Part shown: piece by piece, positions 6,981 to 62,900 of the stretch
Numbering within the stretch: the first letter of the stretch is position 1
Layout: each line of letters starts with the position of its first letter
Source: Octopus vulgaris
Taxonomy: Eukaryota
Reading direction: 5' to 3'
Assembly (NCBI GenBank): GCA_951406725.2
Contig: OX597817.1
Coordinates: forward strand, 130,262,001 to 130,326,000
Length of the DNA: 64,000 nt
Made by a program: the position numbers and the translations under genes
Notes under the pieces: model-generated
The model's database searches: none
The model's input: the letters and a program-made list of their open reading frames with translations, nothing else
Told to the model about the DNA's origin: nothing

Positions 6981-7804
6981 TTACACATACACACACGCTC
7001 AGGTTCGAGTCCCGTGGCTGTCTGCTAACAACCTTTCCGTCATATAAAGGGGAAATACCCAATCTTTCTGCTGTTTTATGGGTATAATACGTTCGAAATG
7101 TTACTTTCTTGACTGTATGACATGATACACTTTCGACGCTTCCCGAAACAAAAACAAAAATGACGGAGGTGTGAGTTCGAGTCTCATAGCCGGCCGCCAA
7201 CACTTTTTTTCTGCAAAATAGGGGTAGCTTATCCTGTTCAGGCTATATTATTAGCATTATCCTGCGTTTGAGAATTTAAAATCACTTCTTTAACTTTCTA
7301 AGACATCTCAACGCTTCTAAAGCAAACTTTGTTTGTTTGTTTACGTTCATCGTAATTTGAATTTAATATATATATATATATATATATATAGGTTGATAGA
7401 GTGATCACGAAAATGGTAAAAGCAAGTAGAAGATTGGCAGAATGGATCCGCTAAATGTGCAAGACAAGAGCACAGGAAGTATTTCCTTATCTAGAACATA
7501 TTTGTTGCCGTTTGCCGAGATTATAACATCCTGAAGGAGACACACAAAATTGAGTAACTCCTTGTACTTGTTGGGCTGTTGAGTTGGTAATGTAAACAGA
7601 AAAATAGAACTCACGATATGAGTATATTTTTTCTTTATTCATAATCGGTAGATTTTACAGAGTTACTCAGTGGCAGAAAGTTGTCACTTACCAAACTTTA
7701 TCTTTGAGGTTATAATTTCCTAGGGACGAAAAAAGGAATGAGTTATCTGGAAAGTTCTAGCCATATTGATGCAGAATATTGGCATTATTCTATAAATATT
7801 AAGT

Positions 7805-8200
7805 CGGCGGCCTGGCAGAAACGTTAGCACGCCGGGCGAAATGCTTAGCGGTATTTCGTCTGCCGCTACGTTCTGAGTTCAAATTCCACCGGGGTCGACT
7901 TTGCCTTTCATTCTTTCAGGGTCGATTAAATAAGTACCAGTTACGCACTGGGGTCGATATAATTGACTTAATCCGTTTGTCTGTCCTTGTTTGTCCCCTC
8001 TATGTTTAGCCCCTTGTGGGTAGTAAAGAAATAGGTATTTCTTCTGTCTTTAAGTTCTGAGTTCAAATTCCACCGCTGAGGTCAACTTTGCCTTTTATCC
8101 TTTCGGGGTCGATAAATTGAGTACCAGTTGCGTACTGGAGTCGATCTAATCAACTGGCCCTCTCCCCCAAAAATTTCGGGCCTTGTGCTTAGAGTAGAAA
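7805..8200 (+). mobile_element. tRNA-derived SINE with Nin/Deu-like domain, dimeric
   Basis: Head ggcggcctggcagaaacgttagc, B-box gagttcaaattcc and a tcgactttgcctttca...ggggtcgat...agtaccag domain occurring twice. Confidence 0.8.
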
Positions 8201-11412: not shown

Positions 11413-11603
11413 GACAGGGGACTAGTATTTAGTACATGACTGCTTGTTATTTACCGACACTACAAGGATGAAGACAAAGTTGAGCTTGGCGGTGTTAGGA
11501 TCCATTTCACTGAGAGCCAGAACAATTGCGGCAAGGCACTTATCTATGAGGCTCTCATGATTCTGTTACGAATATCTATTTGCTTAATATTGGCTTGATC
11601 AGA

Positions 11604-12190
11604 AGGCGGCGAGCTGGCAGAAACGTTAGCACGCCGGGCGAAATGCGTAGCCGTATTTCGTCTGCCGTTACGTTCTGAGTTCAAATTCCGCCGAGGTCGA
11701 CTTTGCCTTTTATCCTTTCGGGGTCGATAAATTAAGTACCAGTTACGCACTGGGGTCGATATAATCGACTTAATCCGTTTGTCTGTCCTTGTTTGTCCTC
11801 TCTGTGTTTAGCCTCTCGTGGGTAGTAAAGAAATAGGTATTTCGCCTGCCGCTACGTTCTGAGTTCAAATTCCGTCGAGGTCGACTTTGCCTTTTATCCT
11901 TTCGGGGTCGATTAAATAAGTACCAGTTACGCACTGGGGTCGATATAATCGACTTAATCCGTTTGTCTGTCCTTGTTTGTCCTCTCTGTGTTTAGCCCCT
12001 TGTGAGTAGTAAAGAAATAGGTATTTCGCCTGCCGCTACGTTCTGAGTTCAAATTCCGTCGAGGTTGACTTTGCCTTTTGTCCTTTCGGGGTCGATTAAA
12101 TAAGTACCAGTTACGTACTGGGGTCGATATAATCGACTCAATGCCCTTCCCCAAGCTACCCTTGTGGCAAAAACGGGAAATTAATATTGG
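11604..12190 (+). mobile_element. Nin/Deu-like SINE with 184-bp internal unit in ~2.7 tandem copies
   Basis: gtatttcg[t/c]ctgccg recurs at 11653, 11837 and 12021 behind a single tRNA-like head. Confidence 0.85.
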
Positions 12191-13531
12191 TTTGATCAGA
12201 AATGGGCATCGGACTCGCAGAATCGATAGAACGTTGGACAAAATTGGTTTGGGTGTTTTACAATCTGAGTACAAATTTCGCTCATATTAACTTTGCTTTC
12301 AATCCATCCCAGTGATCGATAAAATAAAGTAACAGTCGAATAGTGGGATTGATTTCATCAACCTTCAAACACAAACATAATCTTTTACCAGTCTTAGAAA
12401 TCGATTTGGGTGAAATATTTCTTCTGATCCAGTTAGAAAATAGAATGAGAGCACTTTGAAGATGAGTGCTAGTTCGTTGATGTTTTTAACTATGTGCTAT
12501 ACTTACGGGGGATTAAGTGTCCAAGTTATGTTTTTTATTAATCATAACTAGTCTGGGAAATTGTTGATACCACCTCGTAATTAAATATTTGACGTTGACT
12601 CAGTGTTGTTGTTTATGTTGTTATTGTCGTCGTTGCTGTTGTTGTTGTTGTGGTGGTGGTGGTGGTGGTGATGGTGATTCGGCGGTGGTGGTATAACTAT
12701 AAGTCGGATGAAGCAGATCTATATCACATCGTAGTTCGCCCAAATGACTGCACGACTCGCAGATCCGTTCTTCACGATAAAACATGCTTCGCCTTTATAT
12801 TATTGAGAATCAACCACTCTTCAGATTCCAACAAGCAATGGCAGGAACATTTACGTGGTTGATCGACCTGCTAAAATTAAGAACCGAATATGCTTCCAAT
12901 GTCATTGCACGATTTTGAAAATGGATTTACCAAATAAAGGGATCAATTTTTTCAAAACGGTCACAACGTTATTGTAAGTTCATCACAGAGAAATTGGGTA
13001 TATGTATGCATGCATGTGTGTGTATAAACACACACAGACACACACACGCATCTCATTGTGTCGTCCTTTGTTTTCTATTTTAGGCCCTTTTAACTGATGA
13101 TAATAAAATAGCTTATGTCACCCTTACCCTCCCTCTTTCTGGGCATATGTTATCTCACTGAGATTTGTTCATGTGGTCATAGGGAATTTATAGCCATAGT
13201 AAATTAGGGGTTTGGAAGGAGTATCTGAAACTAATTAATTTATTATCAGCAGCTAGAACTTAATTGTCAATTCCATGTAACTTTAATTCTTACTATACTA
13301 GATGCATTAGATCTTTTGATGGTGATAAGGAGATATATAAATGTAGCTGTTTTACTATCTCATGACCCTGATTGTTTTTCTCTTCCGCCACTCCAAATTA
13401 TAGTTGGAGTATTTCTTCGCTAAGTTCATTCTGCTACAATAATAGCAAGCATGTAATTCTTTTATTCGCTAGTTCAGATAAAATATTTGCTAAAAAAAAT
13501 TTAATGGAGTATTCTGTATGTTGAAAATGTA

Positions 13532-15142
13532 CAGTGGCGGCCAAAATGTTCAGAACGGCATTGTTTTCGTCAGAAAAGTAAGTATAAGTTTTTATTAAAG
13601 TAGTTTTATATTCTATACTTTTCACAGACAATAAATACAATATTAATTGTTATTGATTGAGATTTTGGTGTAATTTGAGAGGGAAATACAAAAGTTATGG
13701 ATGATTTAGTGATTTACTGCAAAACCCACGGCGGCCAAAATGATCAGAACGGTTGAAAAAATAACAAAATAATCAAAAATGACAGAGAATACTGGAATTA
13801 TTTGATATTTAGTGTGAAGCCCTTTAGCTTCAATCACACTCTGACATCTTTGACTGCATGAGGAAATTAAATTTTCAATTTCTTGCTGGGTGATCTTATT
13901 CCATTCTTCCTGAAGGGCATTCCATAATTGCTCAGTTGTTTTAGGATTTCTGGCTTTCGAACGTCCTCCTAGAATATTCCATACATTTTCAATAGGATTG
14001 AGATCTGGGCTTTGAGCAGGCCAATCCATAACAATAACCTTTTCAGCCTTAAGGAAGTTCATGACCACCTTAGCCTTGTGACATGGGGCATTGTCCTGCA
14101 TGAATATAGGTGGTCGCTTAGTTGAAGCACAGGCAAGACATGATCTTTTACAAGTTGTTTATGAACTCCTGCATTTACCTTTCCATGTAATCGCACCAAA
14201 GGGCCCACACCATCTCCAGATATCATCCCCCAAACCATGACACTTCCTCCACCGAATTTAACACTAGTCTTAAGGCATTTAGGCGACAATTTTTCACCTA
14301 CTTTTCGACGAACGTACCTTTTCCCATCTGAGCCAAATAACATAAACTTAGATTCATCACTGAAATGCACCGTTTGCCATTTTTCTTGAGACCACAACAC
14401 ATGTTCGGTTGCAAAGGTAAGACGACACTTTTTATTCTTGGAGCTGATCAGTGGCTTCACTGCAGGTGCTCTTGCTTGTAGGTCATGTTCAACTAAACGA
14501 CGAGACACAGTTTTTCGAGATAAAGTTTTCTTCAATACAATACTCATTTTCCGAGAAACAGCAGCAGCAGTTTTAAATCTGTCCTTTTTAACCAACTTTA
14601 GCATAGCACGATCTTCTCTCTTGGTCGTTTTTCTTGGCGTACCTGTAAACTTTCTTGCTTCACACGAACCACAATCATCGTAGACCTCAAGAATACCGTG
14701 TACAACACTTTTTGACTTGTTAACAATCTTTGCAATAGATCCAATACTTAAATTATCCTTCCTTCGAAGCTTAATAATCTGCTGACGAATTGGTAACGGA
14801 GTAAGTGGCATTATATTAACAAAGTACACTGCAAATATTCTTACTAATGTTTAGTCACGTAAACAAATTCAAAACATTAGAGTTCGCCGGTTAAATATAC
14901 TAAAACACGGAGTAAAAGCAACCGTTCTGATCATTTTGGCCGCCATGGGTTTTGCAGTAAATCACTAAATCATCCATTATTTTTGTATAATCCTCTCAAA
15001 TTACACCAAAATCTCAGGCAATAACAAATAATATCGTATTTATTGTCTGTGAAAATTATAGAATATAAAACAACTTTGATAAAAAATTATATCGACTTTT
15101 CTGACGAAAACAATGCCGTTCTGAACATTTTGGCCGCCACTG
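13532..15142 (-). mobile_element. Tc1-family DNA transposon, full length, IR/DR-type ~220-bp TIRs, TA TSD
   Basis: TA|cagtggcggccaaaatgttcagaacgg ... ccgttctgaacattttggccgccactg|TA; inner direct repeat ggcggccaaaatgatcagaacgg at 13731 and its mirror near 14922-14944. Confidence 0.95.
13802..14811 (-). pseudogene. DD34E Tc1 transposase, frameshifted near 14110
   Basis: HTH region, FSDESKF, KFGGGSVMVWG, QDNAPCH, 34 residues between the second D and E in SPDLNPIENVW; split over ORFs 14059-14829 and 13706-14101. Confidence 0.92.
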
Positions 15143-15522
15143 TATATGGTCTTATGGATCCGAAGAAGGCAGTGTATTTCAAATTGGTGTAATGCTTGCA
15201 TTGTTTGATTAAATGGAGCAGCCTGAAATGGCCGTCATGCACTAATACCTTGACATCCTTGTTATTTATTTGCTTATAATATATATATATATGGTGGTGG
15301 TGAGGATGATGACGATGGTAGAGGGTAGAAGACGTAAGCTATTTGCAGAGAAACCCTTACTATTATCTGATGTATCAAAATAAATAACATATTAAATAAA
15401 TGAGGGATAGAGAACTTGTGAAATTCATAAGGGAAAAGAAATATATATAAGTATATATATACATATATGTGTGTGTTTTATGTATATATATGTACATACA
15501 CACACATACATGCACGCACACT

Positions 15523-16704: not shown

Positions 16705-17213
16705 CTTGACATATGAATATGGATAAATAAATAAATAAGAATAAATGAGTGAATATAACTCTACTCCTACAGCTGTTCCTACTTTGGGGGTCCAGCATGC
16801 CAAAGTTGACATATCATTACCAAGATAATACAAAGATTGTACAAAAATTGAACAAGAATTGGATAGAAATTGGACAAAAGTTGAACCCCAAGGCTTCATC
16901 AGAGAGTCCATAATGGCAGGAATTAAACAAGTAAAGAAGTAAAATAAAATAATAAAAATACTAAAGAATAGTAAAAATTAAATTCTTTAGTATCTTTATT
17001 ATTTTATTTTACTTTTTTACTTGATTAATTCTATTATGGACTCTCTGATGAAGCTTTGGGGTTCAACCTTTGTCCAATTTCTATCCAATTCTTGTTCAAT
17101 TTTTGTTCAATATTTGTATAATATTGGTTTGATGTGTTAACTTTGGAATGCTGAGTAGAGTTATATTCACACATTTATTCTTATCTATTTATCTATTTAT
17201 TCATATTCATATG
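16705..17213. repeat. Imperfect fold-back element (~240-bp arms, centre ~16975)
   Basis: gaacaagaattggatagaaattggacaaa / tttgtccaatttctatccaattcttgttc; cttcatcagagagtccataat / attatggactctctgatgaag. Confidence 0.85.
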
Positions 17214-19373: not shown

Positions 19374-19892
<519 letters not shown>

Positions 19893-19908
19893 TATACACA
19901 CACACACG

Positions 19909-19981
<73 letters not shown>

Positions 19982-20137
19982 TGAAATAGAAAGATGAATA
20001 ATCTTGTTGCAGATTAATCAAAAGTTTAACCGATACCTTGGTAGCAAAAATCACAGCAGAAGACAGCACGGTTGGAGGTACAACCATATGGTGTTGCAAC
20101 CGTGCGTTGGTGCGGATAATTGAATTTTAATATTATT

Positions 20138-20611
20138 GGTGAATTGAAGAAATGGAGTTGAACGAAGATTGAACAGAAATCGTTTTATTGCATTCTACAC
20201 GTGTTTCGAAAGGCACAATTTACCAAATTCCGATTGAATAAGGAGACCATATTGTGTCTTTCTCTTCAGGAAGAAATAGGAATTCCGTTGGAAAAAACAA
20301 AAACAGAACAGAGGCGGAGCAAAACAAATCGAACGCGGCTCCTAAGAGCCCATGGCCAAACTCTTGGCCATGGGCTCTTAGGAGCCAAACTTTGGCCATG
20401 GGCTCTTAGGAGCCGCGTTCGATTTGTTTTGCTCCGCCTCTGTTCTGTTTTTGTTTTTTCCAACGGAATTCCTATTTCTTCCTGAAGAGAAAGACACAAT
20501 ATGGTCTCCTTATTCAATCGGAATTTGGTAAATTGTGCCTTTCGAAACACGTGTAGAATGCAATAAAACGATTTCTGTTCAATCTTCGTTCAACTCCATT
20601 TCTTCAATTCA

Positions 20612-20613
<2 letters not shown>
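20138..20613. repeat. Perfect 223-bp-arm palindrome, one HHR per arm
   Basis: 20138-20360 is the reverse complement of 20391-20613 (ORFs 20201+ and 20266- give near-identical peptides); the spacer is an extra copy of the arm end. Confidence 0.95.
20473..20565 (+). ncRNA. Type I hammerhead ribozyme (mirror copy 20186-20278 on minus)
   Basis: ttc-CTGAAGA-gaaag(a)cacaat...attgtg(c)ctttc-GAAA-cacgtg-TA-gaa; distal stem I tatt/aata; predicted cleavage after A20555. Confidence 0.85.
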
Positions 20614-20657
<44 letters not shown>

Positions 20658-20793
20658 ATCATAATAAGTAACAAGGATATCCAGCGGTATTGCAGTACGA
20701 TCGTTTCATGCGGCTCCATTCAATTGAAAAATACAATCATTTCATTACATCAATTTAAAATGTAGAGCAATCTCTCTCTCTATATATATACAC

Positions 20794-20872
<79 letters not shown>

Positions 20873-27595: not shown

Positions 27596-28390
27596 TTGGC
27601 AGAATCGTTAGCACACCAGGCGAAATGCTTAGTGATATTTCGTCTGCCGTTACGTTCTGAGTTCAAATTCCGCCGAGGTCGACTTTGCCTTTCATCATTT
27701 CGGGGTTGATTAAATAAGTACCAGTTACGCACTGGGGTCGATATAATCGACTTAATCCGTTTGTCTGTCCTTGTTTGTCCCCTCTGTGTTTAGCCCCTTG
27801 TGGGTAGTAAAGAAATAGGTATCTCTCCCGTCGCTACGTTCAGAGTTTAAATTCCTCCGAAGTCAATTTTGCCTTTCATCCTTTCGGGGTCGATAAAATG
27901 AAGTATTAGTGAAGCACTAGGGTCGATGCAATAAACTTCAGGCCTTGTGCATATAGTTGAAAGGTTTATCATTATTATTATTATCCTTATTGCTGTTATT
28001 AATATCATTATTGTTGTAGTTGTTGTTGTTGTTAGTGTTACTGCTGCTGTTGTTGTTGGAGCGGCGAGCTGGTAGAATCGCAACCGCGCCGAACAAATTA
28101 CTTAACGGCATTTCTTTATGTTCGGAGTTCAAGTGCCACTGAGGTCGACTTTGCCTTTCATTCTTTCGGGGTCGACAAAATAAGTACCAGTTGAGCACTG
28201 AAATTGATAAAATCGACTTCTAATTCCCCTTAAAACTGGTGGCCTTGTGCCAAAAATTACAAACAATTAGGTCGGCTTTCAGCCTTCCGGGGTCGAGGAA
28301 ATTAGTATCAGATAAGCACTGAAGCTGATGTAATCACTAGTCCCTCTCCTAAAATATTTTATGCCTTGTGCCTGTAATAGAAAGGATTAT
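27596..28390 (+). mobile_element. Two adjacent dimeric Nin/Deu-like SINE copies
   Basis: tggcagaatcgttagcacaccaggcg at 27597 and gcggcgagctggtagaatcg at 28061, each followed by the gcctttcatcctttcggggtcga domain twice. Confidence 0.75.
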
Positions 28391-31522: not shown

Positions 31523-31819
31523 GAAAGAGAGAGGAGGTATAAGATGAAAAAAATTATTTCACCAATTGTCCCAACATCGCCTGACAACCGACGCTGGTGT
31601 GTTTAGCGGTTTGGCAAGAAGACCGATAGAATGAGTACTAGGCTTACAAAGACTAAGTCCTGGGGTCGATTTGCTCGACTAAAAGCGGTTCTGCGGCATG
31701 ATCGCCGTCAAATGACTGAAACACGTAAAAAAAAATAAAAGAATAAATAAATCATAAATTATTTTACATACCTGCATTGACGTATGTAAATTAAATTATA
31801 TTATTCAGTTGTACAATTT

Positions 31820-32011
31820 ATATATTAATACAGTTCTATATTTAAGAGATGAGGAATTATGTACTTTATTCACATTATTTACATTCGACGGATATTTGTC
31901 CTCATCTTGTTTGTTGTTAACACAACGTTTCAGCTGATATACCCTCCAGCCTTCATCAGGTGTCTTGGGGAAATTTTGAACCTTGGTTCTCATTCCTAAG
32001 GTATTTTTCGA

Positions 32012-32042
<31 letters not shown>

Positions 32043-32165
32043 GCTGCTCAGGTCACTGCTTGGAATCGAACTCGGAATCTTGGGGTTAGTAGCGCGGGGT
32101 TAAGAACGCGGGCCACTAACCCCATGATCCCGAGTTCGATTCCAAGCAGTGACCTGAACAATAAT

Positions 32166-32220
<55 letters not shown>

Positions 32221-32395
32221 GTAATAATAACATCGAAAATACCTTAGGAATGAGAACCCAGGTTCGAAATTTCCCCAAGACTCCTGATGATGGCTGTAGG
32301 GTATATCAGCCGAAGCGTTGTGTTAATAACAAGCAAGATGAGGATAAATATCCGTCGAATGTAAATAATGTAAATGATGTAAATTAATACAATTC
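31820..32395. mobile_element. Head-to-head pair of a tRNA-headed element: B box, (AAT)n, minimal HHR
   Basis: Arms diverge from ~32092; gagttcgattcc at 32132-32143 and mirror; HHR acac-CTGATGA-a-ggctg...cagct-GAAA-cg-TT-gtgt at 31919-31963 (-) and a mutated copy at 32280-32324 (+). Confidence 0.8.
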
Positions 32396-32587
32396 TTTAT
32401 TTTATATATATACTTACGAATGAGTAGACAGATGAAAAGAAAAGATGCATTTATTTGGAGTTACATATAGTATTTAAAACGGTTTCATTCGGTCCTACGC
32501 AACTCGATGTTTCGTAGGTTTCTGCAAGTAGCCAACGAAACTCTAAACCGCATGGGATCGAATCAAACTGAATTAAATAATATTTAG

Positions 32588-45879: not shown

Positions 45880-46288
45880 AATAGGCCTTTCTACTATAGG
45901 CACAAGGCCTGAAATTTTGGTAAGGAGGGGACTAGTTGATTATATCGATCTCAGTGTTTTACTAAATTTATCGACCTCCACCAAAAAAAAAATATCAAAG
46001 GTAACGTCGACCTCGGCGGAATTTGAACTCAGAAGTAACGGCAGACGAAATACCTATTTCTTTACTACCCACAAGGGGCTAAACACAGAGAGGACAAACA
46101 AGGACTGACAAACGGATTAAGTCGATTATATCGACTCCAGTGCGTAACTGGTACTTATTTAATCGACCCCGAAAGGATGAAAGGCAAAGTCGACCTCGGC
46201 GTAATTTGAACTCAGAACGTAACGGCAGACAAAATACCGCTAAGCATTTCGTCCGGCGTGCTCACGATTCAACCAGCTCCCCGCCTTA
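45880..46288 (-). mobile_element. Dimeric Nin/Deu-like SINE
   Basis: Reverse complement of the family at 7805 and 11604. Confidence 0.8.
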
Positions 46289-46485
46289 GGCTCACTTCAT
46301 AATAAGGACATCCTGGAGTCGATACCACTGCGTAACATTTTGTTCAAGTGATTTTTACTGCGCTCTCGGATCAACCCAAATTTGTGATTGAATTGGGGTG
46401 AATTTTGATGAACGAAAAATTGCGTGTAAGTCTGACGGATTGAATGTGCCTGGAATTCAAATAACCAACCTTGTTTATACATACG

Positions 46486-46529
<44 letters not shown>

Positions 46530-46534
<5 letters not shown>

Positions 46535-47960
46535 AGACCCACAAACTCCTAAATGCAAATCAGCATGGCTTTCGCTGTGGCAGGGACTGTCTAACACAGT
46601 TCTTACACCACATTGAAGATGTACTCAAAGCCTTGGGAACAGGTTCGAACTCTGACGTCATATATCTTGACTTCAGTAAAGCGTTCGACAGGGTAGACCA
46701 TAACATCCTACTCTCAAAATTGGCAAATGTTGGAATCCGTGGAAAAGTTCTACACTGGATTAAGTATTTCCTGGCGAATAGAACACAACATGTTGTAGTT
46801 GATGGAGTCCACTCAAACCCAGCAAAAGTCACCAGCGGTGTTCCCCAGGGAACTGTTTTGGGTCCGCTACTCTTCATAATTTACGTAAACGACCTTTCCA
46901 GTGTCGTACATTACTGCAAAGTGAAAATATTTGCTGATGACACTAAGCTCCAGCAAATCGTCAATGAAGAAGCAGACCGAACTCAACTCCAGTCTGATCT
47001 ATATGCTGTGAGTCAATGGGCAGACAGAAACAAAATGCAACTGAATGAGGGAAAATTTGAGCTGATGCATTTTGGAAGAAATTCCTCACTAAAACAACCA
47101 TACTCTCTTCCTTCAGGGGAACCGCTCACAGCCTCTAACAATATCAGAGACCTGGGTGTAATTGTTGATGACGATCTCAGTTGGAGTGCACACATCAACA
47201 AGAAGGTCGATATAGCTCGTAGGATGAATTCCTGGATCTTAAGAACTTTCCGGTCCAGAGAACAAGGTGTCATCATACCACTTTTTCCTCCTTTGTACGG
47301 CCACACCTTGAATACTGCTGCCCACTGTGGTCTCCTCACACAAGACAAAACATCTCCAGAATTGAGTCACCCCAGAGGGCACTCACTAAACAAACTGAAG
47401 GCATGGTTGCTCTCGATTATTGGGATCGCCTTAAAGCCTTGAAACTTTACTCCCTCTAGCGTCGCCGTGAGCGATACATCATTTGTACGATGTGGAAAAT
47501 ATACCGCCAACTTTGCCCAAACGACCTAAACATTAGCTTCAAGGTTCATCCAAGACTTGGACCACGGGCTATACGTCCCCTGCCCAATTCAAGATCACAA
47601 CATACATGTACACTGCAACATAATTGTTTTACCTCAACAGGCCCTGCCCTATTTAACATTGTCCCGAGGGAGATCAAAGAGGAAAAGGATCCCATCAACT
47701 TTAAACAGAGTCTGGATAGATTCCTTCAAAGAATACCAGATAAGCCACCCAAAATTGGATACAACTCACCCAACAAGAACTCACTACTTGAACAAAACTG
47801 GATACAACTCACCCAACAAGAACTCACTACTTGAACAAAACTTGACTTAAACAAAACTTGACTTAAACAGGATTCGAATAATCCTATCAGGTGGTGCTAT
47901 TAAGTTAGACATGGCCTGGACCAATCTTTGGTCGAAACATATCTAAGTTTCATCTAAGTT
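46530..47960 (+). mobile_element. Second 5'-truncated CR1/L2-group LINE (different family)
   Basis: QHGFRCGRDC, YLDFSKAFDRV, GVPQGTVLGPLLF, FADD, IRDLGV; frameshift near 47285; 43-bp tandem duplication near 47757-47842; (atctaagttt) tail. Confidence 0.92.
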
Positions 47961-49208
47961 TATATATATATATATATATTTATATATAAATATATGTATA
48001 TACACATGTATATGTATATACGTGAAAATGTGTATACATGTATGTATGTCGATATGTATGCGCATAAACACACACACACCACGGATGCTGCAAAATGATA
48101 TATGGACTAAAAAGTGCGCGGTTGACCCATTTAAATTTGTACGCCTTAATAATACATCAAAGTTTTCGTTCCAAATTCCCACCCTCAGCAATCCTTCTCC
48201 TTCGATATGAAACGGAGTCCATCCATCAATCAACCAGTCAATCAATTATTTCATTAGTGTCAATTAAATTGACGACTCACGCTTCCTTTAACAAACTGAA
48301 GCGTTGTCTCGTAGAAATATAGTTTCTATACGTAGGCTACGCGGGTCGTAAATTTATACTGCATTAGACATGAAGTGTTTTATCGTTGTATTATCAAGAC
48401 AGTCTTTCTTACGCAAACATAGACCCTCATACACACATATGAACACACACGCTTAGACACACACCAGACACGCATGCACATACAAACACATTCAGACACA
48501 CACACCCATATACATGCACAGGCACACATTTACAGTCGTTGTAACAAACGGAATCGTGATTCACAGAGGAGATACGGAAAGAAGTCTTATCTTCTAATTA
48601 ATGAATAAACCATACTACATGTATTAAGTATTACTTAATGTAAATACTTAATGTAAATGGCTGTGAGTACAGCCTATTGATAACGCCCACCAAAGCAGAA
48701 ATGCATATATAATTTTCCCTAGCAACTGCCTAGGCTATTTTAGTCTAATTTAAACACGGCACGTCCGGAGATATTCTCTCCGAGAGAATAGTGGAGCAGA
48801 TTTAACATTCAGGAGGTTTTGAAATTAAATACAATACACAGGTGGTTATTTTGATCTAATACTGCTTCTATTGCATATAACGCATTTTCATTCAGCCGAA
48901 CGGCTATTCGCAACGCGGTTGTTAGTAAGTATATGCTGTTGACAAAGCCCAAAAAGGAGAAATACATTTAGCACACTCATTAACCACTGCTACGACGATT
49001 TTCTTCTGCCTCCAATATATATTGTGTTTATAAAGAAGCACAACCACAAGAAATATAATCTCTGCGCAAATATATATATAGAGAGAGAAGGGGAGGGAAG
49101 ATATAATTATAGATAGGTGGTTAGATAGATAGAGTGATTAATATTGTATATTACACACACATTTATTTACATGTATGTATGTATGCATGTATGTATGCAT
49201 GTATATAT

Positions 49209-49240
<32 letters not shown>

Positions 49241-49357
49241 TGTTATATTTCGGAATGGTCATATTGCCAGTTTAGCCAATAAAAACACACGCACTATATA
49301 TTTGGTGTTATTTTGCTTCAGTGATATTTATTTTTTACATTAATCTTAATCTTATTT

Positions 49358-49403
49358 CGGCCAAAGTTCTTTCGTCACACTCCTGTGACCGCATCAGTGG
49401 TCC
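49358..49403 (-). ncRNA. Variant minimal HHR in the presumed 3' pLTR of the Penelope-like element
   Basis: ggacca-CTGATGC-g-gtcac(aggagt)gtgac-GAAA-gaac-TT-tggcc; A9 position is C. Confidence 0.55.
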
Positions 49404-49924
49404 TTTGTTTTCTTCTCACTTACTTGTGTCTCTCCTTACTAACCGTCAGCCATTTTGTATTTCTATTGTATGTCTTCATTTGCGCATGCTTATATCTCTA
49501 TGTGCGTCTATGTTTATTTAGTGTGTGTGTGGGGGGGATGCCTGTAATATTTGTATCTTCTGGTTATATACATTCTTGTAATTTGTATTTTGTTTTTGTT
49601 GTTGTTGCTTTTGTTCTAATTTTGTTCATGTGTTTACATCCACCCATTATTATCATTACATATGCTTGGATGTATGTATAACAACAATATTAGTAATAAT
49701 AATAATAAATCTAATCGAAAAAAAAAAAAAAAAGAATATACATATACATATATATATATACATACATATACATATACATATATATATATATATATATATA
49801 CATATATACACACATATATACACATATACATATACATATATATACACATATACATATATATAGATATTCATTTCTATTTCTTTAATTACCTGTGTATTTA
49901 TTATGTTTGCAGGATCCACTATTG

Positions 49925-51381
49925 TCATATGTTGTGGTGTGCGCTATTGCTCCATTCTAGTTTTCTATTCAGGCTAGGTTTATTTTCTATTATATGTGTA
50001 GCTTCTGTAATTTGTCTAATTGTTGCATCTGTTCTATGTGTGGACAATATCTTAATCTCTATGTTATTGATTGATCCCCCGTGTTCTTGTTCGGCGTGTT
50101 GGTACAGAATCGATGAGCTTTTACCTTCCTTGAGTTGTCTCCAATGTTCATTCACCCGCTCACCAATGCTTCTTGCAGTTTCCCCTACGTATGTTACTGT
50201 CTTGTTACTGCATCGTCCCTCTATACATCTTATACTATAGACCACATTTCTGGCTTTACAGTTCGTTTGTGGGCTAAATCTACATACAGTGCAATAGTTA
50301 TCCGTACAGAGAGTTCTACTAAAAGAATAGCTTCTACCAATTATAGATCTGATAGGGTTGCCTGGCTTTTCAACAACCTTAATTCTTAGTTTAAGTTTAT
50401 CTAGGGTCCTTCTAAAGCGGTACGCTAGTTCACCTCCAGGGGTGGTGTCAACGAACATGACACTCTGGTATTTATGGCTATCATACCAAGAGTTGGCCTT
50501 CCCTATTTTCTTTTTTGTCCTTTCTATAGTGTTCCATGACTTGTTCCTATAGAGTGGGCAAATCCCATTCCTATCATTACATAATATATTATCAAATTTC
50601 TTCATGGCTCCTTTGTATACTCTGATCCTTTCTTTATGGCTGTAACCTGAGAACTGCATGCGGTGAATGAAATACTGTATGTGTCTCTTTAATTCTGTAG
50701 GCTCGCACATGCGTGACACATTTCTCATTATTCTGACGAGGTCTGCCATCAAAATATTGAATTTGGCATTGCCCGCAATGGCTGAGTTCCGGTGGATCAG
50801 GTATTTTGAGGCCATAGGTTTTGCATAGTATGAATGAAGGATTTGGGTTTTATTTTTCACAATTTCTAGCCAGAGTTCAGTGTCTAGTACTGGTAGTCTA
50901 TGGTTGGGGTGTTTAGTGGGGTAGTCTATTGTGACCTTAATACTCTGGTGGATGGAGTTAGCTATTTGCTGGATGCTCTCCATAGTATTAGTTTCTATTA
51001 CTATATCAACAGTACTCTCTTGTGGGGGTGCCTTTACTACTATATTGATATCATCAACATAGCGAGAGTACATGTTTACGAGTATGGATTTCTGCAGTAG
51101 GCATTCTTTAAGCCTTCTGTCCCACCATACCATGAAGAGGTTGGCCACATCACCAGCGATACTAACACCGATGGCTGCCCCCTCGTCCTGGGCATATATT
51201 TTATTATTAAATTTAAATGTGTGGCCTTTTAGGGTAACTCTTATACTAGCTCCTAGTGCATGTGCGATCATTTTCTTTACCTGATGGACATTTGCGGGGC
51301 TCCGTATGGCTCTGGTCCATCCGCGCCATCTTTCTATATGTGTCTTCCTAGCCATAGAAGTAATTGTAGGCGGTCTACCTC
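49925..51381 (-). mobile_element. 5'-truncated Penelope-like element, uninterrupted RT + Cys-linker + GIY-YIG reading frame
   Basis: [47 protein letters not shown]...[24 protein letters not shown]. Confidence 0.93.
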
Positions 51382-51773
51382 TTAAAGAGACACATACAGT
51401 ATTTCATTCACCGCATGCAGTTCTCAGGTTACAGCCATAAAGAAAGGATCAGAGTATACAAAGGAGCCATGAAGAAATTTGATAATATATTATGTAATGA
51501 TAGGAATGGGATTTGCCCACTCTATAGGAACAAGTCATGGAACACTATAGAAAGGACAAAAAAGAAAATAGGGAAGGCCAACTCTTGGTATGATAGCCAT
51601 AAATACCAGAGTGTCATGTTCGTTGACACCACCCCTGGAGGTGAACTAGCGTACCGCTTTAGAAGGACCCTAGATAAACTTAAACTAAGAATTAAGGTTG
51701 TTGAAAAGCCAGGCAACCCTATCAGATCTATAATTGGTAGAAGCTATCCTTTTAGTAGAACTCTCTGTACGGA

Positions 51774-51780
<7 letters not shown>
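51382..51780 (+). mobile_element. Inverted duplicate of 50294-50692 at the 5' end of the PLE
   Basis: ORF 51415+ repeats [14 protein letters not shown]...LCTDNY with one S/P change; ends in (TA)n. Confidence 0.93.
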
Positions 51781-51827
<47 letters not shown>

Positions 51828-51917
51828 TATATATACATATATACATACACGCATACATACATACATACATACATATATACATACATACATACATACATAC
51901 ATACATACATACATACA

Positions 51918-51944
<27 letters not shown>

Positions 51945-51950
<6 letters not shown>

Positions 51951-53187
51951 TTCATATAAAATTTAGTGTACATTTAAGCACAAAAGAGGTGAACCTTAGC
52001 AGGTTGCCTAACATACTAGAAAGAACACAATAAAAGTCCAAACCATAGTTAAGAGCAATTTCGAAGGGAATGAAAAATTAAAACATTTACCATGTTTTTC
52101 AGCCGGACCTCAGATTTCGAACTTTAATTAGCAAATAAAATAATTTGCAAGGCGAAGTTCTCATCAGCGGATACACCAAAGCATTAACATGTAAATTAGA
52201 GACCGAATAACACGTGCCTCATCCTTATATATTATAATTTTTTTCAATCCTCCGCGCAAGCGCAGATTCAATTGACAGCAAATAAAGATTCCGATTAAAC
52301 TTCAGAAATTGCAAAAATCATTTCTTGAAATTAATTTAGGGTAGGAAAAATTATAGAATTTTTTTCTACCAGTGGCCTAGTATGTATACAGTCAATAGAC
52401 ATATATTTCATATAACAATTAGTGTTCCTAATTTATATGTTAATGTTTTGGCGTATCCGCTGATGAGAACTTCGCCTTGCAAATTATTTTATTTGCTAAT
52501 TAAAGTTCGAAAGTCCGGCTGTAAAACATGGTAAATGTTTTTATCTTTCATTCCTTTCGAAATTGCTCTTAACTGGGGTTTGGACTTTTATTATGTTCTT
52601 TCTAATATGTTAGGCAACCTGTTACGGCTCGCCTCTTTTGTGTTTAAATGTACATTGATTTTTATATGAAAAATATGTCTATTGACTTTGTAGCCATACG
52701 AGGCCACTGGTAGAAAAATCTCTATAATTTTTCCTACTCTATATTAATTTAAGAAATGATTTTAGCAATTTCTGAAGTTCAATCGGAATTTTTATTTGCT
52801 GCCGATTGAATCTGGGCTTGCGCGGAGGATTTGAACTATTATAATATATAAGGATGAGGCACGTGTTATTTGGTCCCTAATTTATTTATTAATGTTTTAG
52901 CGTATCCGCTGATGAGAACTTCGCCTTGCAAATTATTTTATTTGCTAATTAAAGTTCGAAATCTGAGGTCCGGCTGAAAAACATGGTAAATGTTTTTATT
53001 TTTCATTCCCTTCGAAATTGCTCTCAACTATGATTTGGACTTTTATTGTGTTCTTTTTAGTATGTTAGGCAACCTGCTAAGGCTCACCTCTTTTGTGTTT
53101 AAATGTAAAATATATCTACTGACTTTGTATCCATACTAGGCCACTGGTAGAAAAAATTTCTATAATTTTTCCTACCCTATATTAATA
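51945..53187. mobile_element. ~450-bp HHR-containing repeat: one inverted unit plus ~1.7 tandem units
   Basis: CTGATGA at 52460 and 52909 (period 449); mirror at ~52097-52180; ccg-CTGATGA-gaactt...aagttc-GAAA-tctgagg-TC-cgg. Confidence 0.85.
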
Positions 53188-53207
53188 TACATACATACAT
53201 ATATATG

Positions 53208-53274
<67 letters not shown>

Positions 53275-53377
53275 TTATATATATATATATAATGTATATC
53301 TATCTATCTACATGTCTGTCTGTCTGTCTGTCTGTATGTATGTATGTATGTATGTATGTATGTATGCATGTATGTAT

Positions 53378-53550
53378 GTGGATGTAGGTGTCTTGAAAAC
53401 GAAATTAGATCTTCTATCAAGATATCCGAGTGAACTCACCTCACGGCAAAAAAAAAAGCCTCATTTCAGAGGAGGTTTCAAGTAGCAAAGTTGACGTCTG
53501 TGTCCCAGCATGACCGCATCCCTCAAGATGAAACTAGTAAAGAAATAAAC
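53378..53550 (+). mobile_element. Decayed 3' end of the CR1 family seen at 1257-3175
   Basis: gtggatgtaggtgtcttgaaaacgaaattagatctt and cccagcatgaccgca...tgaaactagtaaa align to 2933-3150. Confidence 0.6.
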
Positions 53551-53981
53551 ATACATACGCACACATACAAAACCATATCCTACGTTTAAGATTTTATGGT
53601 TTTAAGTATTTTGCATTTAAATTTAAATCTTCATATATTTCCACCTTCTGTATGACACTCCTCTCGTGGTTGATCGATAAAATACAGAATATGTAATCAG
53701 CAATCAATTAATCTTTTAATTAATTAATTAGTTTCAATTAAATCGACTAAATATGGACTCACGTTGTATAAAGAGAGACGGCACAGCTGAGCTACAGAGT
53801 ACGTCTAATTCACATAAGATCGTAAAAGAGATATTCTCGCTTGCATTACAGAATCGATACTTGGTCACTGAAATGATTCACTATGAGCTTACGTCTCTTT
53901 TTCTGTTGCGTTTTACCTTTCCACCATAAAGATATACATATACACAGCGAACATATCCTTTGCTGTTATTGTATTTGTCTA

Positions 53982-54791
53982 CGATGGGATACCCAAAAGA
54001 AACCAGAATCGGTCCAGACGCGTTTTCTACTGTTCGAGACAGCGCTGGAACTCTTGCAAAGGGATGCCTTTTAACACCTCCGTCGTTTACCTCTTTACCT
54101 CTTCCACATCTGCAAATTCCGTAGCACCAGCTTTCGTCACCAGTCATGACCTTCGAAAACATTCCCGGATCAATTTCCATCTGTTCTTTCAGTTCATGAC
54201 ACACAGTCGTGACTGTTTTTGATCTTCTCTATGCAAGCGAAGCACAAATTTTACTGCAGCTCTTTCCATTCGGAATTCCTCGCTCAAAATTCGCTGGCAG
54301 GAGCTCGAGGGCACACCAGTCATATCAAGTTTGTCAGCTGTTCGGTGACGATCCTCCAAGATCAGTTCACGAATTTTCATGATGTTTTCATGCATTCGAG
54401 AGATTGCCCTGAACAAGGTTGGTATACAAGCGACAAGTGACTATTCTTAAAGCATGAAAACCACTCGTAAACTTGTGTTTTGTTCATGGTAGTGTCCTTG
54501 CACGCTGCTTGAAGCATAGCATCTATTTCGGCTACCGTTTTCACCAGCAGAAGACAAAATTTCACAGAAGCCTGCTGTTCCTTCCTTCCAGCCATCGTAA
54601 AAATCGACGAATAGGAGAAAAGCACTGCAAAACAAAGACGTACCACGTAGCAATACGACCTGAAGCAACGACGCCGGTCGGCAGACTGATGCCTGAGGGT
54701 CGCATCAAGTGGTTGCTGGTGGCGGAAGCCTGAACTACACCGAGCTTGTCCTAAATAGACCATTTCCGGTTATTTTGGGGGTATCTCCACG
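53982..54791 (-). mobile_element. Internally deleted mariner relic with TA-flanked TIRs
   Basis: TA|cgatgggatacccaaaagaaacc versus ggttattttggggtatctccacg|TA; QVYEWFSCFKN, KVMTGDESWCYG. Confidence 0.8.
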
Positions 54792-55029
54792 TAGTCTAGT
54801 TGTTCATTAATTGACTTGGATTATGTTCAAAGAAATTCCAACCTCGAGCGACGACTTTTTCTATATTTAGGACTATATTGCCTAATTTCTCTCTCCCTCT
54901 CTCTCTCTCCTTCTCTCTCCCTCGCACCTTCTGCTTCTCTCTGTGTGTATACATACATACATACATACATACATACATACATACATACATACATACATAC
55001 ATACATACATACATACATACATACATACA

Positions 55030-55096
<67 letters not shown>

Positions 55097-55100
<4 letters not shown>

Positions 55101-57708
55101 AATATAAGAGAGTGGTCACTATATGGCTCACTCTAGCACCAGTTAATCCAAAAGGTTTCAACCACAGAAATACATGTTTCCCATGAAAGTCAGTACGATT
55201 GTTAGCTCACATGGACAGGGCAAATAAAAAATAACAAAATACAGATTATCTTGGGACAATTGTTTCGCTATTAATGAATTAAATGTAATTTTACTTACAA
55301 TAAAATCCACTTGTAGCTCTTCAGCCAAGACTATCTGGATGAAATCCACTCAATCACACGCCAGATTTTACCATAACGATAAATACGCGTGTGGTTCAAT
55401 TGATTACATCCGACGTTATAATTCAAATGCCCCAACTAACAGCGCGCCAAACTTCCACGGAAAACAAATACAGCATTTAGAAATAAATGCAGCATAATTA
55501 TAATCAATTAATAAGGGTGAGAGAATTAGATACTAATTTAATAGTATATCTATTCAACACCAAGTGGCCTAGTGCTCCGAGAAACCTGGATTATTATAAT
55601 ATTTTATAATATATTATAATATTTTTACAAAATAAATATAAGAGAGTGGTCACTATATGGCTCACTCTAGCACCAGTTAATCCAAAAGGTTTCAACCACA
55701 GAAATACATGTTTCCCATGAAAGTCAGTACGATTGTTAGCTCACATGGACAGGGCAAATAAAAAATAACAAAATACAGATTATCTTGGGACAATTGTTTC
55801 GCTATTAATGAATTAAATGTAATTTTACTTACAATAAAATCCACTTGTAGCTCTTCAGCCAAGACTATCTGGATGAAATCCACTCAATCACACGCCAGAT
55901 TTTACCATAACGATAAATACGCGTGTGGTTCAATTGATTACATCCGACGTTATAATTCAAATGCCCCAACTAACAGCGCGCCAAACTTCCACGGAAAACA
56001 AATACAGCATTTAGAAATAAATGCAGCATAATTATAATCAATTAATAAGGGTGAGAGAATTAGATACTAATTTAATAGTATATCTATTCAACACCAAGTG
56101 GCCTAGTGCTCCGAGAAACCTGGATTATTATAATATTTTATAATATATTATAATATTTTTACAAAATAAATATAAGAGAGTGGTCACTATATGGCTCACT
56201 CTAGCACCAGTTAATCCAAAAGGTTTCAACCACAGAAATACATGTTTCCCATGAAAGTCAGTACGATTGTTAGCTCACATGGACAGGGCAAATAAAAAAT
56301 AACAAAATACAGATTATCTTGGGACAATTGTTTCGCTATTAATGAATTAAATGTAATTTTACTTACAATAAAATCCACTTGTAGCTCTTCAGCCAAGACT
56401 ATCTGGATGAAATCCACTCAATCACACGCCAGATTTTACCATAACGATAAATACGCGTGTGGTTCAATTGATTACATCCGACGTTATAATTCAAATGCCC
56501 CAACTAACAGCGCGCCAAACTTCCACGGAAAACAAATACAGCATTTAGAAATAAATGCAGCATAATTATAATTAATTAATAAGGGTGAGAGAATTAGATA
56601 CTAATTTAATAGTATATCTATTCAACACCAAGTGGCCTAGTGCTCCGAGAAACCTGGATTATTATAATATTTTATAATATATTATAATATTTTTACAAAA
56701 TAAATATAAGAGAGTGGTCACTATATGGCTCACTCTAGCACCAGTTAATCCAAAAGGTTTCAACCACAGAAATACATGTTTCCCATGAAAGTCAGTACGA
56801 TTGTTAGCTCACATGGACAGGGCAAATAAAAAATAACAAAATACAGATTATCTTGGGACAATTGTTTCGCTATTAATGAATTAAATGTAATTTTACTTAC
56901 AATAAAATCCACTTGTAGCTCTTCAGCCAAGACTATCTGGATGAGCTAACAATCGTACTGACTTTCATGGGAAACATGTATTTCTGTGGTTGAAACCTTT
57001 TGGATTAACTGGTGCTAGAGTGAGCCATATAGTGACCACTCTCTTATATTTATTTTGTAAAAATATTATATATTATAAAATATTATAATAATCCAGGTTT
57101 CTCGGAGCACTAGGCCACATGGTGTTGAATAGATATACTATTAAATTAGTATCTAATTCTCTCACCCTTATTAATTAATTATAATTATGCTGCATTTATT
57201 TCTAAATGCTGTATTTGTTTTCCGTGGAAGTTTGGCGCGCTGTTAGTTGGGGCATTTGAATTATAACGTCGGATGTAATCAATTGAACCACACGCGTATT
57301 TATCGTTATGGTAAAATCTGGCGTGTGATTGAGTGGATTTCATCCAGATAGTCTTGGCTGAAGAGCTACAAGTGGATTTTATTGTAAGTAAAATTACATT
57401 TAATTCATTAATAGCGAAACAATTGTCCCAAGATAATCTGTATTTTGTTATTTTTTATTTGCCCTGTCCATGTGAGCTAACAATCGTACTGACTTTCATG
57501 GGAAACATGTATTTCTGTGGTTGAAACCTTTTGGATTAACTGGTGCTAGAGTGAGCCATATAGTGACCACTCTCTTATATTTATTTTGTAAAAATATTAT
57601 AATATATTATAAAATATTATAATAATCCAGGTTTCTCGGAGCACTAGGCCACTTGGTGTTGAATAGATATACTATTAAATTAGTATCTAATTCTCTCACC
57701 CTTATTAA

Positions 57709-57715
<7 letters not shown>
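55097..57715. mobile_element. 534-bp HHR tandem array (~3.5 units) joined to ~1.45 inverted units; retrozyme-like
   Basis: Units start 55097, 55631, 56165, 56699; inversion junction at ~56942-56944; near-identical copies; (TA)n on both sides. Confidence 0.92.
57345..57440 (+). ncRNA. Type I hammerhead ribozyme (identical copies on minus at 55242-55337, 55776-55871, 56310-56405, 56844-56939)
   Basis: cagatagtcttgg-CTGAAGA-gcta...tagc-GAAA-caattg-TC-ccaagataatctg; predicted cleavage after C57427. Confidence 0.9.
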
Positions 57716-57746
<31 letters not shown>

Positions 57747-58298
57747 CTGCACGCGTGTATGTGTGTATGCGTGTATGTATCAATATGTATTTTAGAGTGA
57801 ATTTTAGTCATTAAGCCTGCGTTGGTTGTACATAATATTGGGTAGGCTACGTGTAAAAGAAAAACAATAATGACAATACAAATATTTATTTGAGTTTTCA
57901 CACATCTTTATTAGTGCGCAGTGTTTACATTTACATGTGTACATATATTTGATTTAACGGAACAACATTCATGTGATAATGAACTGAATGGTTAAGAGTC
58001 TTTAGTAACATGGTGGATAATATCGTGAAAGTAATTAATTGTTATTGGTAGAAACTATTAGCACCACTACTGCATGTAAGTAATGAGTGCATGATTGGGT
58101 ATTACAACCCAAAGGCGGAAACCTTTTTGTCAAACCAGTCACAAGTATGTCAAGTAAGAACCGCTGAGTGGTTTGGGTCTGCGATTAAGTTCGCCAACTT
58201 TTTATAACTGTACAAAATAGATTCTAGAAATTTCGATCCAGCAATTTGGCGGGAAACTCGCTCATTTTCTCTGTGCATGTGTGTGTGTGTGTGTGTGT

Positions 58299-61761: not shown

Positions 61762-62765
<1,004 letters not shown>

Positions 62766-62779
62766 TATATATATATATA

Positions 62780-62900
<121 letters not shown>

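Follow-up and report, generated by a model that had tools for sequence, protein, structure and literature searches.

Insertions of Penelope elements (PLEs) are described in the available text of Craig et al. 2021 (PMC8557442) as partial tandems with an inverted, 5'-truncated copy at the 5' end, a tail of 30-40 bp at one end and a bias towards microsatellites. A PLE protein has been seen in vitro to cut AT-rich DNA on both strands and to extend them, two start sites defining the tail, and the hammerhead of that system is reported to be protein-assisted and dispensable for insertion (PMC11167929). Action as dimers via stem III is described for metazoan hammerheads (PMC4209133; PMC6765202). Circularisation of retrozyme RNA (PMC7229834) serves as a precedent for monomers, and the preprint of Li, Clavereau and Pollet (bioRxiv 10.64898/2026.07.22.740005) derives animal retrozymes from PLE pLTRs and reports that one of nine predicted Xenopus retrozyme dimers cleaved in vitro. 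A schistosome parallel (PMC8490949) adds nothing specific in its accessible portion. For octopuses, Hydra-1_Obim is listed for Octopus bimaculoides (File S2, PMC8557442). No description of octopus retrozymes was found in the literature searched, though repeat libraries and supplements may already hold the family, and the words ribozyme, retrozyme and hammerhead have 0 occurrences in the main text of the O. vulgaris repeat paper.

The locus considered here occupies positions 51947-53187 (1.2 kb) of a 64-kb stretch of Octopus vulgaris DNA (the window) and lies within a TA/CATA microsatellite. It consists of an inverted arm of ∼1.05 units standing head-to-head with a direct arm of ∼1.7 units, the unit being 455 bp and the direct period 449 to 455 bp, so that the tandem/inverted family of ∼450 bp announced by the original prediction is indeed present at this place. 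Arm A (minus strand, running from 52425 to 51947) comprises one unit and ∼27 nt of terminal redundancy, with mismatches at 2 of the 23 columns compared; the 3' end of the arm (the short end) merges with the microsatellite via an ATATGT microhomology, which makes the boundary ambiguous up to 51943. The arms meet 5' to 5' at 52424-52425 with a 2-nt GT overlap. Self-comparison of the locus delimits the second arm, B/C (plus strand, 52424-53187), as a direct partial tandem, in which the copy alignment places an 18-nt deletion private to copy C approximately at 53106-53107. Ungapped identities are 93.1% (A-C), 92.5% (B-C) and 91.2% (A-B), in line with the description of the copies as visibly diverged. 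The 3' ends of both arms point outward into TA/CATA repeats: (TA)n followed by (CATA)n on the left (51781-51946), between the element and a neighbouring PLE, and, by composition, (CATA)/(TA)n/(TG)n on the right (53188-53379).

The two ends are unequal. In this single insertion the left end, located at a microhomology with the repeat, falls ∼75 nt short of the unit position reached by the right end, and comparison of the ends reveals a tail-like extension of ∼75 nt (53113-53187, plus strand) at the right (long) end only, which carries ACTAGGCCACT at 53135 and a terminal CCCT..TATTAAT. On examination for a target-site duplication, both ends of the element were found to sit in microsatellite with microhomology. 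The features by which PLE-type insertions are recognized in the available text of PMC8557442, i.e., a partial tandem with an inverted 5'-truncated copy at the 5' end, are present, as are a tail at one end (∼75 nt) and a microsatellite target (TA/CATA flanks). The 455-nt monomer between two predicted cut sites (52516-52970, plus strand) is non-coding and has 33% GC. A coding origin was rejected, since the longest stop-free frame in the unit is 50 amino acids and the best tblastn match of the unit region against 121 PLE proteins of the neighbouring PLE's family has an E value of 3.0. No Pol III B box was found in the unit, and a TATA box at 52845 is no evidence of a promoter, being present also in 517 of 2,000 shuffles. 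There are no further copies of the unit within the 64-kb window. We consider, with a probability of roughly 0.78, that the locus is a non-coding insertion of a 455-bp hammerhead repeat, a non-autonomous PLE (animal non-LTR retrozyme), placed in the microsatellite by TA-targeting PLE reverse transcription from several already-different copies. The family had been called retrozyme-like, and this description holds for a non-coding head-to-tail unit with a type I hammerhead sequence that is conserved among its copies.

Complete type I hammerhead motifs are found in copy A (52092-52184, minus strand; core at 52167, GAAA at 52118 and predicted cut after C 52106) and copy C (52892-52984, plus strand). 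In both, stem I comprises an inner part of 3 bp, a 5-nt bulge and a distal helix. After CUGAUGA, a stem II of 6 bp leads through a 6x6 internal loop to a 6-bp hairpin, and GAAA, a 9-nt stem III region and GUC follow. In copy C, the core CUGAUGA lies at 52909-52915, stem I (with the bulge and distal helix) at 52906-52908/52971-52973, stem II at 52916-52921/52952-52957 with the distal hairpin at 52928-52945 beyond the internal loop, GAAA at 52958-52961 and the quasi-palindromic 9-nt stem III at 52961-52969, and cleavage is predicted after the GUC at 52970. This structure has the bulge in stem I and the tiny stem III that the original prediction described, but not its branched stem II insert, as the gcaaat/atttgc hairpin is an unbranched extension of stem II across the internal loop. 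The CUGAUGA, the G-C pair at the base of stem II, GAAA and GUC are shared by A, C and the core of copy B (52443-52529, plus strand; core at 52460, GAAA at 52509 and C at 52515). The reported loss of stem III at the 52460 copy is real: 6 nt are missing and GAAA-G-UC remains. Copy B, with this deletion in stem III, is predicted to be inactive or very weak.

A satellite-like or assembly-made duplication bearing a chance hammerhead-like motif would be compatible with the absence of any Rfam hammerhead at the gathering score in the window (or at an E value of ≤10 in 49000-58000) and with a predicted minimum-energy fold of the ribozyme region that is non-catalytic. The motif is nevertheless rare by chance. 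A type I hammerhead descriptor, composed after the motif had been seen, gave 10 matches from four families in the 64-kb window, 2 of them in the 455-bp element (11 matches, including all three copies of the element, when stem III was relaxed), against 0.02 matches per shuffled 64 kb in 100 shuffles and none in 5,000 shuffles of the unit. Moreover, it is exactly this motif that is selectively conserved, and an assembly artefact is dismissed on the 7 to 9% divergence between copies. Such an origin is hardly credible. The drawn structure, in which stems I and II are closed and both the 5' and the 3' end lie in stem I, has 27 pairs, with 78 of 79 cells paired across copies against 27 to 48% in slid controls, a structure that was derived from the same three copies and in which no pair covaries (compensatory changes at 0 of 27 pairs). 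An exact 24-nt core pattern had no match in a collection of bacterial and archaeal genomes.

The predicted energetics of stem III favor a dimer helix. The stem III regions of A and C would form an 8-bp intermolecular duplex at −5.6 kcal/mol, compared with +3.0 as a hairpin, whereas for copy B the duplex is predicted at +4.2. PLE hammerheads that cleave as dimers were reportedly described by Lunse et al. in 2017, as mentioned in a review. The catalytic monomer fold lies above the ensemble by 13.0 (copy C) or 9.3 (copy A) kcal/mol, compared with 2.3 kcal/mol for the ribozyme of the nearby 534-bp array, in a model that leaves out tertiary contacts and with a gap of 9 to 13 kcal/mol that does not include the energy of a double hammerhead. 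A rival fold, in which the core pairs with stem III, is predicted to be more stable than the catalytic monomer fold by this margin, which exceeds what the dimer helix repays. Position 15.2 is U, paired to G (U15.2-G16.2), and is C in 26 of 26 Hydra-clade rows. The fragment 52893-52985, proposed earlier for a cleavage assay, is predicted to misfold as a monomer, and a negative cleavage result with it would be little informative because of this misfolding. The ribozyme of the 534-bp array, with a predicted catalytic fold near the ground state, is a better candidate for assay. As a circle, the 455-nt monomer is 59% paired, with a z score of −1.1 against 60 shuffles, i.e., it is not better folded, and the 534-bp unit has a z score of −6.3 in the same comparison. 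The locus itself is likely a spent copy, to judge from its sequence, having no two consecutive intact ribozymes (B is deleted and A inverted); for the same reason it falls outside the "active" retrozyme loci as defined in the accessible part of the Li et al. preprint.

Differences between the copies are distributed in a manner that bears on their age. Within the 68-nt ribozyme span, delimited by structure, 0 of 62 three-way columns vary, compared with 25 of 171 outside it (Fisher P = 2.6e-4; P = 0.002 when the ribozyme deletion is counted as one event). No substitution was found in 198 lineage-sites of the ribozyme, where 9.5 are expected (Poisson P = 7e-5; 8e-4 if one event is allowed), and the fewest changes in any of 258 overlapping 68-column windows outside it is 5. 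The ribozyme is not poorer in GC (40% versus 30%), and the changes outside it are evenly spread without overdispersion (chi2 4.5, df 10). The original prediction made its reading depend on preservation of the core and stems in the family, and among these three copies they are preserved, the ribozyme being free of substitutions.

An old insertion of the same kind of element, with identical copies from one circular template that have since decayed neutrally, would account for the similar pairwise divergences (7 to 9%), the star-like private changes (8 in A, 11 in B and 6 in C), the private deletions in B and C and a slight excess of GC-to-AT changes (12 versus 9). Neutral decay, however, predicts the 9.5 ribozyme substitutions of which none was found, and we regard this history as unlikely. 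Because the ribozyme is invariant (bar one deletion) and the rest is 7 to 9% apart, most differences between the copies likely predate the insertion; as neutral ageing after insertion is hard to fit, the divergence likely arose in units replicating under selection on the ribozyme. The description of this family as older thus lacks support if taken to date the insertion. By our own arithmetic, 0 of 198 changes bounds post-insertion divergence at about 1.5%. With the clock given in the available text of PMC13282606 (JC 0.09 = 25 My), the insertion would, as a rough figure, be at most ∼4 My old, compared with ∼13 My from a naive 4.8% per copy. The conservation pattern could also be explained, without heterogeneous templates, if identical copies had been inserted and diverged members of the family had afterwards converted them in patches, leaving differences outside the ribozyme only. 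This would demand conversion over nearly the full length of three copies, while the outside changes are even rather than patchy, and would still demand selection on the ribozyme at the level of the family; such conversion is distinctly improbable. Three units of the neighbouring 534-bp array differ by 0 or 1 changes, as one template would give.

Insertion of copies that already differed would proceed as follows. A source locus would be transcribed into multimers, in which adjacent ribozymes, joined through their 9-nt stem III regions by an 8-bp helix, could cleave after GUC as dimers, perhaps with protein assistance. The resulting 455-nt monomers might circularise. Both microsatellite strands would then be nicked by a PLE RT/GIY-YIG protein that primes two cDNAs, with two start sites giving the short and the long end, and joining of the cDNAs at the 2-nt microhomology would produce the head-to-head arms. 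The template would be either a heteromultimeric source or several monomers between which the enzyme switched.

The neighbouring PLE, which does not belong to the 455-bp unit, is represented by a 5'-truncated ORF (49925-51403, minus strand) with RT motifs plus GIY-YIG at the C terminus (Pfam E values of 0.0012 and 0.0015, respectively, below the curated cut-offs). Over 83% of its length the ORF matches an Octopus vulgaris protein at 97% identity, and by the motifs in the available text of PMC8557442 its CX4CxxC linker suggests the Neptune or Nematis type. A segment at 51382-51780 is 99.7% identical to 50294-50692 in inverted orientation, and 49925-51780 is regarded, on sequence grounds, as a PLE that is truncated at its 5' end and has an inverted arm. 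The 455-bp element begins 163 to 167 bp beyond the end of this arm at 51780, in a compound microsatellite common to both, in agreement with the ∼165 bp and shared microsatellite given earlier. A further segment, at 49240-49735 (minus strand), is of PLE 3' type and contains a minimal hammerhead, decayed in appearance, whose CUGAUGC core lies near 49398; the segment is co-oriented with the PLE ORF across a microsatellite and may or may not be the 3' end of that PLE.

The unit had alternatively been proposed to be a multimeric pLTR, and it might be this or the 3' remnant of an autonomous PLE, possibly of the neighbour at 49925-51780. Both elements lie in one microsatellite with the same fold-back layout, type I hammerheads occur in PLE pLTRs (PMC4209133), and the true 3' end of the neighbour is uncertain, with 63 nt only between its stop and the microsatellite. 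Against this, the 3' end of the unit runs straight into the next ribozyme in a 455-bp head-to-tail period with no ORF beyond it, and the RT and GIY-YIG ORF that defines an autonomous PLE is absent from the element. The unit aligned with 49240-51780 no better than shuffles did, 198 of 300 and 134 of 300 scoring as high, and the co-oriented segment at 49240-49735 has its own, unrelated hammerhead-like motif. A pLTR origin is therefore quite improbable, and the linkage to the PLE ORFs that had been put forward for checking was rejected for want of shared sequence. The position beside the PLE likely reflects a common TA target rather than a common structure.

The 534-bp hammerhead array (55098-57716) was said to share the architecture of the 455-bp element, and the head-to-head fold-back layout is seen in both. 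The two families also resemble each other in their long stem II, in sense-strand composition and in having ACTAGGCCACT and a terminal CCCT..TATTAAT near the long end, and their distances from cut to short end are 159 nt (455-bp family) and 157 nt (534-bp family). The array has features of its own: near-identical copies, a perfect 8-nt palindromic stem III, a longer tail and a strongly folded monomer. In the same sense, the units align colinearly with cores in register at a score of 94, reached by 4 of 1,000 shuffles and by 0 of 438 real segments of the window, compared with a score of 38 in the opposite sense, reached by 864 of 1,000 shuffles. Under other scoring schemes, 19, 13, 50 and 0 of 220 reached the score. 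The terminal motif, chosen after it had been seen, gave counts of 0, 23, 1, 55 and 1 of 2,654. In nhmmer searches of the window, the 455-bp profile and the 534-bp unit did not cross-match at an E value of ≤10. The two units are likely, though this is not established, to be distant sisters, the overall sequence similarity being borderline and significant under some scoring schemes only. The original prediction of an independent, unrelated family holds for the retrozyme-like character of a non-coding unit with a conserved hammerhead; the unrelatedness is doubtful in light of the weak colinear similarity.

Long-stem-II hammerheads of four families occur in the 64-kb window, which makes the 455-bp element ordinary for this genome. 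A MAFFT alignment of the ribozymes of the four families did not bring their cores into register. The head-to-head fold-back layout is found also in the adjacent PLE, in the 534-bp array and in an element at 19978-20613. The latter lies in (TA)n and has unequal ends, a complex palindromic junction (20340-20420) and two long-stem-II type I hammerheads (cores at 20269, minus strand, and 20482, plus strand) with a perfect 8-nt palindromic stem III; it is flanked by a 254-bp direct repeat (19724-19977 and 20614-20867; 94% identical and partly microsatellite), possibly a long target duplication. A C-terminal endonuclease-domain fragment at 61886-62197 resembles Hydra-clade PLEs and has 1,763 relatives at an E value of ≤0.001, and its long relative P0152 carries DKT, RT and CxxC/E/N/CxH motifs like those of the Hydra clade in the available text of PMC8557442, as judged by visual comparison. 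At ∼62256, 58 bp past the stop of this fragment, lies the 3' half of a ribozyme with a long stem II, homologous to the ribozymes at 62638 and 20482. In this genome, ribozymes of this general shape would so appear, from their sequence context, to be associated with the 3' ends of PLEs. The 455-bp unit shows no similarity to the Hydra-like region 62190-62790, and no autonomous partner sharing sequence with it was found among the PLE segments compared in the window. The hammerhead at 62638, within 61886-62790, is complete and related to the half at ∼62256.

Several other repeats are present in the window. Inverted pairs at 16750-17190 and 31750-32400 contain hammerhead-like cores (16902/17045 and 31959/32284, respectively) and are likely decayed PLE fold-backs. 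A Tc1/mariner-like element (13527-15147) has inverted termini of ∼229 bp and an HTH_Tnp_Tc3_2 ORF (14059-14850, minus strand), and two RVT_1 ORFs (1119-2642 and 46465-47442) are likely LINE fragments. A dispersed family with a 184-bp tandem subunit (7800-8200, 11603-12142, 27597-28250 and 45888-46288) is one that we take to be SINE-like.

The locus provides cephalopod support for the proposed status of animal retrozymes as non-autonomous PLEs, in the form of a non-coding hammerhead repeat with the full signature of PLE insertion (inverted arm, tail and TA target), a signature that the cited papers do not use as evidence for that link. A conserved ribozyme amid diverged copies suggests that the motif was selected in the family and that the age of an insertion need not follow from how far the copies of its array have diverged. 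The homogeneous 534-bp array and the heterogeneous 455-bp repeat, both young-looking and separated by 2 kb, provide a test of single-circle against multi-template models. We tentatively propose, as a possibility on which we would not yet rely, that one insertion stitched together several different ribozyme-bearing monomers, the PLE RT having primed on both target strands and jumped within a heterogeneous pool of retrozyme RNA, and that the long-stem-II hammerheads of octopus, with four families in 64 kb, form a structural subtype of their own that has an off-state fold built in. If this were true, such loci would be fossil records of PLE template switching; a search for literature linking template switching with Terminons found none.

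Comparison with the closest described systems places the 455-bp element as follows. It resembles the EN+ PLE insertions of Craig et al. 2021 (PMC8557442, available text) in its partial tandem, inverted 5'-truncated copy, one-end tail, microsatellite target and sense-strand hammerhead near the 3' end, and differs from them in having no RT/EN ORF and a tail of ∼75 nt rather than 30-40 bp. With the Hydra-clade PLE hammerheads listed in File S2 of that paper it shares a (TA)n target and a 9-nt, odd, quasi-palindromic stem III (20 of 26 rows), but those ribozymes have a loop II of ≤10 nt and C at 15.2; four short motifs of the unit had 0 matches in the part of the supplement available, where line breaks can hide matches. 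Likeness to animal non-LTR retrozymes, as characterized in the accessible portions of Cervera and de la Pena 2020 (PMC7229834) and the Li et al. preprint (bioRxiv 10.64898/2026.07.22.740005), extends to non-coding units arranged head-to-tail, each with a type I hammerhead, a GC content of <50%, a unit size within the reported range (150-450 bp; 51-972 bp) and co-existing PLEs, and a mollusc precedent is provided by Mytilus (350-390 bp). Compared with those retrozymes, the octopus element has a head-to-head inverted arm, an extended stem II (42 nt, including a 6x6 internal loop), a U15.2-G16.2 pair and copies 7 to 9% apart within one insertion; it also has no two consecutive intact ribozymes and a predicted circular fold not above shuffles. 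The locus is best classed among the known animal non-LTR retrozymes, parasites of the non-autonomous PLE kind, as a new example with the twist that its copies were likely already different when they were inserted.
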